A stretch of DNA of 64,000 nucleotides, from the IMG/VR virus record IMGVR_UViG_3300008448_012223, one strand, 5' to 3'. The notes beneath the pieces were generated by a model. That model made no database searches and was not told the DNA's origin. It was given only the letters and a program-made list of their open reading frames with translations. Position 1 is the first letter of the stretch; the number at the start of each line of letters is the position of its first letter. Source of the DNA: a virus. Both the position numbers and the translations under genes were made by a program. Of the stretch, positions 9,637 through 20,577 are shown in pieces.

Positions 9637-9905
9637 CACTCTCAGACTATAGACTCACATACGAGATAACATCACTACCGACTATAATATTCGCTGGGAT
9701 GACCGCTGCGGATGAGCCATTTCACTTCACTCGCTTTGAGGTGCCCCCCATTAATGGTCCCATCGAGTGCCGCTTTTTACTATTCGATAAGTCAGGTAAT
9801 TTGATAGAGTTATCTAATCAATATGTGCACAGTACTGCGCTAGTGGCTACCTGCAATATAGTGCCACTGCGTATGATAGAAAAGCTAGTTAAACCAGATC
9901 CATAG
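9630..9905 (+). CDS. Hypothetical protein
   Basis: ORF track; 3' end overlaps the 3' end of the giant convergent gene by 17 nt. Confidence 0.55.
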   Translation: MVTLSDYRLTYEITSLPTIIFAGMTAADEPFHFTRFEVPPINGPIECRFLLFDKSGNLIELSNQYVHSTALVATCNIVPLRMIEKLVKPDP

Positions 9906-18900: not shown

Positions 18901-20577
18901 CGGCTCTATATTACCACTAGCTATAGCTAATAGCTGCCGGGCCATCCGCTGACGGCCCTCGAGATCTCCACTATAGAAGCCATATCTATCTAATACGTTA
19001 GCCATATCACTAACACCAGTGCCCCGGTTCTCTCTAACCCATCGAGCCACGTCGTAGTTAGAGTCAGATAACTCAGCAGCTAGTCTTTGATTACCCAATA
19101 GTAAGCGACTCATAGGGTCCTGTACACCCTCTCGATAAGTATGTATATCTACACCTATACGAGCGCGCCCCTCTATAGCTAGATCTAATACCTTAGCCTG
19201 AAGTTTAGAGTACTCCTGCTCCTTAGCCTCTAGATACGCTTGGTAACCAGATAGTGTTCTCTCCGACTCAGGACTCTCCCCCATCTCCCCCTTAAGCTGA
19301 CTTGCCATCAGGGACTTATCGTGCTTGAGCAGGAACACCTGATTGAGTACCATATAGAGACGGCCCGTCTTACCATCGATAGTAGGCGTCTTAGTCAGCT
19401 CATCTACGTGGCGGCCTAGCGCAGTATTAATATCACCAGCACCACCTATATTATCCTGCCCCGTGAATAGAACTCTATCACCGCCCTCGAGTCTATCCAT
19501 GACATCGCGGGCCTGTAGATATAATTTATCAGCCCGCGTCATAGTACCAGGCAGTATACCTCTATCGGCATCCTGTATTTGACTATAGGTCAGGTTAGTG
19601 CGTATAGTCCGCGTGAACTCTACATTAGAACCTGCCTGTTCTAGCGATTGTCCTAGTGGCCGCGTCACGTTCATCGTACCTATGAGAGCGGCCCTATCAC
19701 TAACGAAGAACTTAGGGTGATTACGTCTATCAGCCCATTGGATATCTATATCTACATTACTCCCGAAGCGGTCCCGTAGATAGGACAGCCGTCTATAAAA
19801 CATAATGTTGGGGCCCAGGATATCATAATTCTTACGAGAGTCCCCATCAGTCTCAGATGGGGCAGCCATACGAACTACCACACGGCCCCTCTGGCCACTA
19901 CCAGCCATTCTCTCTACAGCTTCACCCACCATATCTATAGCGCGCTCATTCTGGAACTGATAGATGTCTATACGCAGTTCTCTCTCTGCTGTATCTACTA
20001 GCGCGGCAATAGGTAGTAAGCCGGGCCGTACATTATAACCATCATCAGATAGTAGATCCAACATGCTAGAGCGATTCTCTAGTAGTAGGCGGCGTTCATC
20101 GTCTATGCCCTCTAGGTTAGACTGCATAGTGAGCTGATCTCGCTGGGCCATCCAATTAAGCATATCATCAGTCTGGCTACGGGCAGGAGTAGCTGTACCC
20201 CCCATACCTGCCATGTATTCGAAGTGCTCCTGACGAGCGGGGCCCTCCATACTATCCCACAGACTCGAGATAGCAGCTCGACTACTACTAGTATCAACTA
20301 CCCTATCATAGAAAGCATCAGCTAGCACCATCTCCATAGAGGCGTCGGTACCAGGCGGTATAAAGTTAGGGTCCATTAATACTTCTAGAGGATTATAGCC
20401 CTGTAGTAATCTACTGCGCGTATTCTCAGGGATACGGTAGAGGGCATTCCAACGAGCACTGTCATTAAATCGATTACTAGAGAATAGTGAGCTATTGATA
20501 TCCATCAGTAGAGTACAAAACCTATTAAATATAGCTATAGCTGAAAAACTGCCTACTTTAGCGGGCAGTGGCCTCAT
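9889..20577 (-). CDS. 3562-aa protein: N-terminal PLD-superfamily domain, single-chain two-barrel RNA polymerase (beta- and beta'-like), hydrophobic C-terminus
   Basis: HPKFFVSD..IGTMN (H287) and HVK..GSSN (H566). VMIMALEGAYSD(1356)Y resembles beta VAFMPWNGYNFED. QFLRTLLEGGSR(1496)RVEAERGLAK(1506)IV..IQYIVSP resembles beta KRRIQPGDKMAGRHGNKGV..VDIVLNP. IQR(2477)SPP..LLNPISFIASNLGD(2537)FDGD resembles beta' NRAP..LHPLVCAAYNADFDGD. Confidence 0.75.
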   Translation of the reverse strand: MRPLPAKVGSFSAIAIFNRFCTLLMDINSSLFSSNRFNDSARWNALYRIPENTRSRLLQGYNPLEVLMDPNFIPPGTDASMEMVLADAFYDRVVDTSSSRAAISSLWDSMEGPARQEHFEYMAGMGGTATPARSQTDDMLNWMAQRDQLTMQSNLEGIDDERRLLLENRSSMLDLLSDDGYNVRPGLLPIAALVDTAERELRIDIYQFQNERAIDMVGEAVERMAGSGQRGRVVVRMAAPSETDGDSRKNYDILGPNIMFYRRLSYLRDRFGSNVDIDIQWADRRNHPKFFVSDRAALIGTMNVTRPLGQSLEQAGSNVEFTRTIRTNLTYSQIQDADRGILPGTMTRADKLYLQARDVMDRLEGGDRVLFTGQDNIGGAGDINTALGRHVDELTKTPTIDGKTGRLYMVLNQVFLLKHDKSLMASQLKGEMGESPESERTLSGYQAYLEAKEQEYSKLQAKVLDLAIEGRARIGVDIHTYREGVQDPMSRLLLGNQRLAAELSDSNYDVARWVRENRGTGVSDMANVLDRYGFYSGDLEGRQRMARQLLAIASGNIEPTAVPRSHVKAYLATYENDAINQGAGLGMQNIDNRQAFDILGGSQGSSNYGLNSLADSDDLLSRQLVNQEINIIYDRVGGTSPLSLSSEERDEENREYARAFYKLQSSLGIQRIGETHYSGRDRRSMYSNRVDRRAILDLINEIERVNAAVGSEVIGIQRDYDGLNLEGATLTLNKGLPTQRVYRWGAYKNASGRGPAAFIDISGGRQIESAELFNTGTMRMELAIERDGRGVGLDPRRRLRLNPLDVVVGLMSSIALESETTRLVRAPLIEYQRYYSPDNIRAAQAVQRDSGAQYQSAMNFFEKLLGVSGLDLTTDEGTSRVQQGLSNLTSLFYSSDPDLDRIRDLASISRTDSRRRVAFEELSNIFLTYARSIDEKGQPIIDLEAHRRGALNLAANKLYEIMDQGPMFADVLFKFIESQNDSRYNIDVRERLKEIHDSAFAAFLTPTQARNYGSTQASNRLVAYGFGQGRQPAGISIVNAALRRIKANETTFSNLSAFAYTASPLPIGPVSDLGVGDDFLFVRVAEGNVSPTATDESQYFTAYNNVLPLSRRAIASEVFDLSIIRSTGVGDIIRRDELSEYMKAVSHLGIDRSLLEAEFDARGDNLLRFFFDPNKPDQVPQRLKNVIGMRPLMDISESYTQVLELVSPTDTGKVIPELTPVRYRARYGGSDVDVLQGSTYQDAYLADLRAGLEARGLDSSIVDDGYRYGAIFSGRISRFMSSEAAVELEAIRYELADRLGIDSEDIPTEDDSVLAELFRATIVQSQLFASRERGLIGSGRARPTVMIMALEGAYSDYAYANPLHRVRRGFLDQATKSSKASLLGRDWTFDNIVVSSDDRIVFDEGEQRYYLLDREGRRKQAITSRSEMRVFLGQIESTSRNPNMGAAMATSAAAGIRGEYAIEQLLQVSRLTGSDATNEVQVQIQFLRTLLEGGSRRVEAERGLAKIVPVFLSEDIMRSEVFPTIQQGGYHSALEIEDIQYIVSPTNLKSYAFNHGATLLTYNGGELFRRGVLERNDQQIAAALLSIADSRLFSNNSNINIDTVYIEIAQLAAQGRLGNYYRDLYMSTMLELMQSDKLGDGSPHLEIGRKLVRGSDGAINRLQSPVLGAIDISEIMTALRSGTSSGSLSNKVGLIVDAADAARRGYVDTGAMGRGFERAAIAGNLEIMMQLMSLNNTLELNTTPVTGSDSISRHAYAAMSVIAGVTQADEISVGQENVAVMLDRLSNYSRYVVLYNAVMGSSSKVPLSSKDTAQLEMQHIVSSPFMANVDKFKRDGSVDSMRRAILGVMKMAIGADPNKMAVDDIPMYDLAGLDFHANSTLGEILLGVYNDARAPLSDITNLRERYRQFHTALSLLESASDTDMVSYTRGSGPDTTNVTHTILDEIATWMGQPAGTDRDTLRNVVRQSLRVLKNDIYAHASRWRLAGDKVLGVEATEATVQSMGQKNLRRIAYEFPSFRIEGNNVVFNTAIKERGFILSPEDVRIAGIQFGSHENEIAAATVDKWVMLAPGSTVRDIFEKVAIESSSRTTIELEGLSDFQIQELTRFQELNSTYEARVYNDLASAYLQPITGNKIGVTGTTGVGAASWYVPVRGAVLAEATMERFGTRGSQTREEILTRLGDHLKNNLSVIGQSGDKRIGRRLIQQQIYAITEGLSIAGMYGLETVVDKSKNFQSRIAGIEKLAPGLQAAEYAHLEIEIKAEMDRFSSMKFSGSGDSLVSTLGEAEMGTILESLPGAETHKYRDLGHLPIIISGLMIGSQGPARSIIPDNMRIYIDTNALGNRFDNLDLLQGRARKNPIDLSFFSDTRGKDGAEMLNTFSTRLDSLERTINDVTSAVDTYLEGKSPRGTDLHNRGVALITQYRKLVSDANAAYAMELDPVMANRAARDSLFIMNSTLQADMSIFFTELELTRAWIQRSPPPGNTHLDKLVFGLDTLNSINNIYRDLTGSGFNFFDDTRNKSLTLLNPISFIASNLGDFDGDTFSAIFFNYSQMKLQRDDMLERAKERREMASQAADPAKRTILEKQASDLETRASALLDTIQQVTTNASWNEYTDSVYSWVAGYMKLDKGMLEQRGIEHALVLVEQARGLFGMMEDVYARIHPAHESLLELIQQSRTDSAVDIVNRLSTSTDQNILTDLVNNPDIGPFVRASLHDILSATGNDQEEKAYDFLHKLTAVNARDNLSKYMKRADGSVMSGGQFDMMQKVLGQAGSVILGKTYNTTVGMLYERSPIMAVSHALENSSALQDDIRRILIDQGIASGMSASDANLEADSKIADIQRLARQSRTEVGEVGTFLQEIQQMLRDAIKPKMGGAEFLENLSQYHKRFVDAVDDVERQRVVDDMSKLLPSITPLFKLDAYIEAHKELLASATNDAQDSKINDLLTKLSIGEAEQLDLSRRLSVLRGDEIGTHSRALIASYQLRQDLVGMAAVFAFERAMPTDKAGNPISSGRGLAESVETYINSEPARAAQIDALIAGGITNGLTEMEIEVEEFQNFTRDVIGDKRFQDMGTNTKRILAMNFLRSRESASLWANTDGSKLLRFAINDSTRSTLYGGQLEDVLGQDLITAAGDPTGLGASPLVRSLLQAVSAGKINEPEQVARALESLMDTFTHADGKRYEIADIFSVLLNSGTPSPADKEIIEFIQKTVLTDEIATSRLVTYVRATALGQQVDTADRLVEELRDYESRDVDTRYIKLLQDMGVAPDRAKELAARRRDYLLAGSPPDVDPLDPRPRPDRPLLRVADDLPILNNTAGNIMDVLLFPLMALAGDMISSGGARPEAMQQTMGNMLGAMAYVSAPAGNQLGRFAAGTLMSMGFKGRLAGQLHEDYTIGVGMLLAQEIAFGATAQLAGRYIINPFVEKTLGKAPTIDSDPFAGLRNVASNVITGALSLVSAGFVNKLLHRGLEVSMQRSVAPVALDAVSAGIRATQESMNRARMEREDNAETEVVDDAGSPVEFFVQTIFNGDEYDTYDALYMSDLTVDRPNSMAYRNESESYSMDLV

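Follow-up and report, generated by a model that had tools for sequence, protein, structure and literature searches.

A giant gene of Microcystis myophages probably encodes a single-chain two-barrel RNA polymerase with a PLD domain

Which polymerase transcribes the genes of the myophages that infect Microcystis, a toxic bloom-forming cyanobacterium? The virus group has been stated to lack an RNA polymerase (RNAP), and mass spectrometry of virions has been called still necessary (PMC9927357); for Ma-LMM01, the use of host sigma-70 throughout has been proposed (PMC5780444). Here we analyzed a stretch of 64,000 nucleotides (the window; IMG/VR record IMGVR_UViG_3300008448_012223) of a Ma-LMM01-type Microcystis myophage. 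Its minus strand carries, at 9889-20577, a giant open reading frame (ORF) of 3562 amino acids (aa), the orthologue of gp080 of Ma-LMM01 (genus Fukuivirus). An earlier note, made from the letters alone, had read this ORF as a single-chain two-barrel RNAP and had stated that the group was described as having none; the two papers cited confirm this. We describe gp080 as a PLD domain, a probable single-chain two-barrel RNAP and a hydrophobic C-terminal region.

Conserved motifs and predicted fold of gp080

The ORF is a real gene, since it is 95.2% identical to Ma-LMM01 gp080 and the ratio of nonsynonymous to synonymous substitution (dN/dS) between the two is 0.14 overall, with 0.07-0.25 in every region. 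A tblastn search of 50,697 phage records found gp080 with about 96% identity in nine records of Microcystis phages (Ma-LMM01, MaMV-DC, -DH01, -CH and -DL) and a relative with 25% identity in a Microcoleus phage; all are labelled "hypothetical protein". The Ma-LMM01 protein is UniProt A0A7J4 and PHROG 31006, and its UniProt name was given automatically from the PLD domain. The records say either "hypothetical" or "PLD domain", and none says polymerase. Sequence comparison did not reveal one either: the whole chain had no match in Pfam and only its own family of unknown function in PHROGs, and neither the whole protein nor the family profiles matched any RNAP in Pfam, PHROGs or the PDB sequences. 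Homology searches gave a family of 111 sequences (95 clusters at 50% identity), of which 99 are near full length, with 2852-6490 aa and a median of 3905. The single match in GTDB genomes lies on an unbinned contig of a metagenome-assembled genome. One homologue has an in-frame TGA within the beta-like barrel (L007:13796-13798), leaving frames of 1471 and 2231 aa; this may be a sequencing error, a read-through site or a true split.

The four motif blocks which the earlier note had listed are all present in the order claimed, and the catalytic loop D2537-F-D2539-G-D2541 lies at 12955-12969 (minus strand), as it had stated. We aligned 55 family members, 15-50% identical, over aa 1346-2545. Seven residues are invariant in all 55: K1506, K1549, G2139, D2537, D2539, G2540 and D2541. 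D1356 is invariant in 53 of 53 and R2477 in 54 of 54. The arginine of the second block had been named as R1496, but the conserved one is its neighbour R1497 (52/55); the IQYIVSP segment is there as described, and the invariant residue near it is K1549, just after the block. Loss of DFDGD in homologues would have spoken against a polymerase, and DxDGD is intact in 107/107 family sequences that cover the site. Because the predicted catalytic positions are invariant among members so diverged, the motifs go beyond chance. By order and motif, these residues would correspond to D814, K1065, K1073 and R1106 of the cellular beta subunit and to R425, D460, D462 and D464 of beta'.

The same segment (aa 1346-2545) was modelled with AlphaFold2 from 34 sequences, with a predicted local distance difference test score (pLDDT) of 75 and a predicted template modelling score (pTM) of 0.62. 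When the model was compared with 48,161 chains independently of Foldseek, the RNA-silencing polymerase QDE-1 of Neurospora ranked first (Z 11.1, 183 aa, 3.2 A). This match takes in both barrels together, the model aligning from end to end with QDE-1 690-1015. The same span matched P74-26 gp62 (Z 8.7, 170 aa) and maize RDR2 (Z 8.6, 189 aa). The entries ranked between these three are helical bundles that fit the insertions of gp080; they were discarded, together with sequence matches to chemotaxis receptors and coiled coils, as arising from the helical insertions. Foldseek against the PDB placed RPC2 of Pol III first (E 2.6e-3), and large RNAP subunits make up most of the top 50 rows.

Both double-psi beta-barrels (DPBBs) for which a check had been proposed are found in the predicted structure, in polymerase geometry and within one chain, the beta-like barrel first and the beta'-like barrel second. 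The former (DPBB-B, aa 1346-1810, 15148-16542, minus strand) holds D1356, R1497, K1506, K1549 and K1804; as positions 1-465 of the model, it aligns to human RPB2 780-1059 (5.4-6 A) and to vaccinia Rpo132 744-1028. The latter (DPBB-A, aa 2134-2548, 12934-14178, minus strand) encloses a helical insertion and holds K2134, G2139, R2477 and the Asp triad. Here, model positions 789-1200 (K2134-A2545) superpose on E. coli beta' 345-468 with a root-mean-square deviation of 2.1-2.4 A over 83-84 aa, K2134 falling on K345 and D2541 on D464. These spans agree with the assignment of the first two blocks to the beta barrel and of the fourth to the beta' catalytic loop. The conserved arginine of DPBB-A (R2477) and the aspartate and basic residues of DPBB-B (D1356, R1497, K1506) lie inside the aligned spans in the expected order. 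The two modelled barrels and the conserved Asp triad support a single-chain two-barrel RNAP. We are almost certain that gp080 has a polymerase fold with an intact active site, and we consider it very probable that the enzyme is active.

Three further conserved blocks lie outside the modelled segment. Upstream of the first barrel, a basic block at aa 1169-1191 (K1175, Q1178, Q1181, R1182, K1184; 17005-17073, minus strand) is probably a duplex-binding helix. C-terminal of the catalytic loop follow the blocks aa 2769-2792 (12202-12273) and aa 2856-2871 (11965-12012), both on the minus strand, which on sequence grounds we read as putative bridge and trigger helices. The second has the pattern Q-x3-D-x2-K (Q2862, D2866, K2869), kept in its strict version in 84 of 105 homologues.

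Accessory regions, a second polymerase and the closest known systems

The earlier account of the polymerase motifs was sound, but it did not mention the PLD-superfamily domain at the N-terminus (aa ~186-628, 18694-20022, minus strand). Its half-sites are H287/K289/D294/N303 and H566/K568/N607, so that the chain has the two HxK half-sites with downstream Asn by which the superfamily is recognised. The N-terminus matches Pfam PF13091 with E 8.6e-5; the E-value falls to 2.1e-6 for the best member and to 5.8e-9 for a distant homologue. Its score of 22.8 does not reach the curated cut-off of 27, which homologue P0109 passes with 36.3. The three weak PDB sequence matches of this part are all PLD enzymes and cover the motif only. 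The domain occurs in 55 of 57 close full-length homologues, the two exceptions being truncated N-terminally, and many members of the distant group keep the paired H-x-K motifs. Its most likely substrate, at about an even chance, is the end of the entering DNA or RNA ends; membrane lipid seems a weaker candidate.

Length differences within the family arise at an insertion site in the beta'-like barrel, near aa 2180-2200, where the inserted segments of homologues reach ~2000 aa (aa 2664-4583 in P0016 and aa 2657-4728 in P0019). The P0016 insert includes two ADP-ribosyltransferase-like motifs (Pfam PF03496 and PF01129), which recall T4 Alt. The C-terminal region (9892-11880, minus strand) is of constrained length: the chain after the trigger motif measures 690-850 aa (10th-90th percentile), and total length is far more variable. 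A transmembrane-like segment is predicted at aa ~3317-3335. Such segments occur within the last 400 aa in 82 of 99 homologues, at a rate of 1.23 per last 400 aa vs 0.012 elsewhere, about 100-fold.

Just beyond the window, adjoining the early gene cluster of Ma-LMM01, lies gp064 (1673 aa, L052:10812-15833), annotated as hypothetical. It has R-T-P followed by a D-A-D-G-D loop. Its model (pLDDT 82.5, pTM 0.81) matched two-barrel RNAPs in all of the top 14 structural rows, the first being the non-virion RNAP gp62 of P74-26 (Z 11.1, 414 aa); RDR2 and QDE-1 are matched as well, and Foldseek gives matches at E 1e-4. Judged by this model, gp064 is a second, compact single-chain two-barrel RNAP. It is present in 9/9 Fukuivirus records and in the Microcoleus phage, sharing contigs with gp080, and in four of ten distant contigs, mostly incomplete. 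In a profile-profile comparison the two families match in the catalytic loop only (probability 54%, 27 columns), and we therefore claim no recent duplication. Our literature search, in which coverage of subscription papers was limited, found no publication naming gp080 or gp064 as a polymerase and none for a PLD-polymerase fusion.

Single-chain two-barrel phage RNAPs are already known, and the gp080 family adds a new architecture without detectable sequence similarity to the solved ones. The closest system is that of the Thermus phage P23-45, where gp96 is a virion RNAP fused to the tape measure and gp64 is a non-virion RNAP (PMC10770324). Like gp080, gp96 is a giant protein that joins a two-barrel core and a long C-terminal part in one chain; like Ma-LMM01, P23-45 has a second compact single-chain RNAP in its genome; and both its enzymes share with gp080 the Q-x3-D-x2-K pattern after the catalytic loop. 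P74-26 gp62 is among the structural matches of both gp080 and gp064. However, gp080 differs in the absence of sequence similarity, in its N-terminal PLD domain, in the large insertions of the beta'-like barrel and in a chain length that seems not to match the tail. P23-45 is a siphovirus, whereas Ma-LMM01 is a contractile-tailed cyanophage whose gp064 falls outside the first class of genes to be expressed. No Microcystis entry stands in the accessible part of the supplementary survey of PMC10770324.

The crAss-like virion RNAP gp66 of phi14:2 (PDB 6VR4) is likewise a large single-chain two-barrel RNAP among virion genes and has the D-x2-K pattern. In contrast to gp080, with which it has no sequence similarity, its catalytic loop is DFDID instead of DFDGD, and it is podovirus head cargo encoded between two other large cargo genes. 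QDE-1 and plant RDR2 (Z 11.1 and 8.6) are the structures that fit the two barrels best, but they are cellular enzymes of about 1,000-1,400 aa without PLD domain or membrane segment, and a modelled fold shared with them is no proof that gp080 uses an RNA template. Cellular multisubunit RNAPs (beta/beta') and jumbo-phage RNAPs have superposable barrels and the R-x2-P and DxDGD motifs; gp080, in contrast, is one chain without alpha, omega or sigma and has the trigger motif of the single-chain clade.

Genomic setting and time of expression

The giant gene stands head-to-head with gp081/gp082 (20634-21427, plus strand), which we identify as a tail-assembly chaperone pair of the G/GT type with products of 120 and 264 aa; the longer is predicted to arise by frameshift at an in-frame slippery heptamer at 20936-20942. 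GenBank labels the two as unrelated hypothetical genes. The slippery site, together with a -1 frame that stays open for 162-174 codons, was found in the window and in 14 of 17 scored loci (the tally is 15 with near-duplicates of the window's own group set aside), and two more loci have the open frame without the heptamer. The closest named Atlas clusters of gp081 are tail assembly chaperones (0.89-0.90), which serves as a lead only. It was established for lambda that G/GT pairs chaperone tape-measure proteins. The portal, a probable head protease/scaffold and the major capsid genes follow at 21424-25912 (plus strand), in an order kept in homologous loci. In every locus examined gp080 is head-to-head with gp081/gp082, and then come portal and capsid. 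On the opposite strand of this head operon lies a small gene, gp084 (22757-23179, minus strand), with a SWIM-like Cys/His motif; a similar opposite-strand gene occurs at that place in homologous loci.

The tail tube gene is directly followed by a hub-like gene (32760-35415, plus strand; ORF92/93 assignments of bioRxiv 10.1101/2024.12.13.628456), with no tape-measure gene between them. At 35415-36989 lies a gene for a baseplate spike-like protein, which weakly matches an OB-fold (PF04717) and an amidase (PF01520) family. Two tape-measure traits were found at gp080, namely the adjacent -1 frameshift chaperone pair, which is head-to-head and not co-directional, and the predicted membrane-spanning segments.

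Published RNA-seq of Ma-LMM01 (PMC5780444 supplement) gives log2 counts at 0, 1, 3 and 6 h of infection of 0/0/7.3/8.5 for gp080 and 0/1.6/7.5/8.0 for gp064. At 1 h gp063 has already reached 7.9, and gp061-gp063 stand at 7-8 log2 units. The gp080 transcript thus rises along with the structural genes from 3 h on, and this late expression and the structural neighbourhood fit the class of virion RNAPs. As gp080 has no reads and gp064 very few at 1 h, the early cluster is active before either polymerase is newly synthesised; this first cluster is therefore transcribed by host RNAP or by an enzyme delivered with the virion.

Where would such an enzyme start? The earlier note had pointed to an early array, but the early class of Ma-LMM01 is gp054-gp063, which lies beyond the window, and gp066, at the window's left end, belongs to the middle class (PMC5780444). 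An array of short genes occupies this end (1145-3615, minus strand), and ahead of each gene stand a hairpin, a T-run, a ribosome-binding site and a conserved 9-mer. The window has 11 copies of this 9-mer, 8 of which lie in the array, behind terminators. The array is not an obvious target of an injected enzyme, because corresponding genes such as gp066 are of the middle class. Possibly the 9-mer is a promoter of gp064, which could serve genes of the gp066 type. Another candidate is an array of 42-bp repeats directly upstream of gp063, the first early gene (L052:10272-10593; NC_008562 43271-43592). Its short palindromic core has eight copies, all on the coding strand and none elsewhere in the 162-kb genome. 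One relative has five diverged copies at the matching place, and in one relative the loop is inverted. This may be a promoter array or, equally, an origin or a repressor site.

Away from these loci, a low-GC gene of 474 aa (55254-56678, minus strand) lies beside AT-rich short genes at 50095-54105; by its motif it looks like a host-derived SelO/YdiU AMPylase.

How gp080 may act, and what this would mean

We consider it likely that gp080 is a virion-delivered RNAP of the P23-45 gp96 type paired with gp064 as the non-virion enzyme. Delivery in the virion is by itself quite probable, and delivery together with early transcription is reasonably likely. The enzyme would be produced alongside the structural proteins and loaded with the help of the G/GT pair, probably doubling as a tape-measure or ejection protein. 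On infection its C-terminal helices would enter the inner membrane of the host and so keep the polymerase at the site of DNA entry. There it would transcribe gp054-gp063, the earliest cluster, and might start from the repeat array upstream of gp063; gp064 would then take over the later genes.

Several observations weigh against this explanation. The gp080 gene lies outside the usual place of a tape-measure gene, the tube-hub interval, which holds no other candidate, and an Atlas search with its C-terminal 663 aa returned low scores only (<=0.81) and no tape-measure look-alike. A tape-measure protein spans about 0.15 nm per residue. At this rate gp080 would measure ~530 nm as a whole chain and ~105 nm for its C-terminal part, against a 260-nm tail (PMC9927357). 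The chain may lie partly in the tail tube, and a tape-measure role is in our opinion somewhat less probable than its absence. Host RNAP explains transcription of the early cluster at 1 h equally well, and SigA-like promoters were proposed for all gene classes, from a sigma-70 predictor only (PMC5780444). As to the fold, the modelled segment ends before the putative bridge and trigger helices, Foldseek gave no match at E<=0.001, and the Z of 11.1 for QDE-1 barely exceeds that of unrelated helical-bundle rows (10.5); our confidence in the fold is high despite this small difference because the aligned spans and the invariant residues agree. The family profile had no significant sequence score against gp66, gp64 or gp96. 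Moreover, phi14:2 gp66 and P23-45 gp96 are not among the top 50 structural rows, with which kinship is still compatible.

The motifs might also be relics, or resemble those of a polymerase by chance, in a large helical structural protein without activity. In favour of this, sequence searches of Pfam, PHROGs and the PDB matched no RNAP, and an AlphaFold 3 screen of Ma-LMM01 reported neither ORF80 nor gp064 (bioRxiv 10.1101/2024.12.13.628456). However, the few columns that are invariant at 15-50% identity coincide exactly with the positions predicted to be catalytic in the two barrels, which superpose jointly on QDE-1, and we regard this explanation as very improbable. Could gp080 instead be an active but unpackaged polymerase, made in mid-infection for late genes, as is YonO of SPbeta? 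Its transcripts appear at 3 h, ahead of the structural-gene peak at 6 h, and the phage has no late sigma factor (PMC5780444). Against this stand the hydrophobic C-terminus, the fixed link to G/GT and head genes and the toxin-like cargo inserts of the homologues, and the compact gp064 is better suited to the late role, all of which makes this improbable.

The third alternative keeps gp080 in the virion as an ejection protein whose polymerase has a job other than mRNA synthesis, for instance pulling in DNA through leader transcription, making primers or RNAs at the repeat array, or processing ends together with the PLD domain, while host RNAP makes the early mRNA. The nearest fold is that of QDE-1, which copies RNA too; a PLD phosphodiesterase is fused to the chain; the repeat array could be an origin; and SigA-like early promoters and unchanged host transcription have been published (PMC5780444). 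These promoters, however, were called by a sigma-70 predictor alone, and the tested analogues, gp96 of P23-45 (PMC10770324) and gp66 of phi14:2 (bioRxiv 2020.03.07.982082), are reported to transcribe early genes. We hold this alternative to be rather improbable also.

The virion-delivered polymerase thus remains our preferred reading, and it can be carried further than we would defend at present. It is conceivable, if unlikely, that gp080 serves at once as the tape measure of a contractile tail, as a membrane anchor, as an injected RNAP that reads promoters in an array of hairpin repeats, and as a PLD enzyme acting on the end of the DNA as it enters. Its catalytic barrel would then have a slot for cargo, filled by ADP-ribosyltransferases in some relatives, and the whole would form a host-independent two-polymerase programme.

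Ma-LMM01 serves as the model phage for toxic blooms of Microcystis, and gp080 and gp064, as modelled, contradict the papers stating that these phages lack an RNAP. The infection of Microcystis has posed a puzzle, as three temporal gene classes were seen without a phage sigma factor or a change in host transcription (PMC5780444); two phage polymerases, if true, would answer it. The gp080 family adds about 95 clusters to the single-chain two-barrel clade. If our explanation is true, the two-polymerase scheme of P23-45 extends to contractile-tailed phages.

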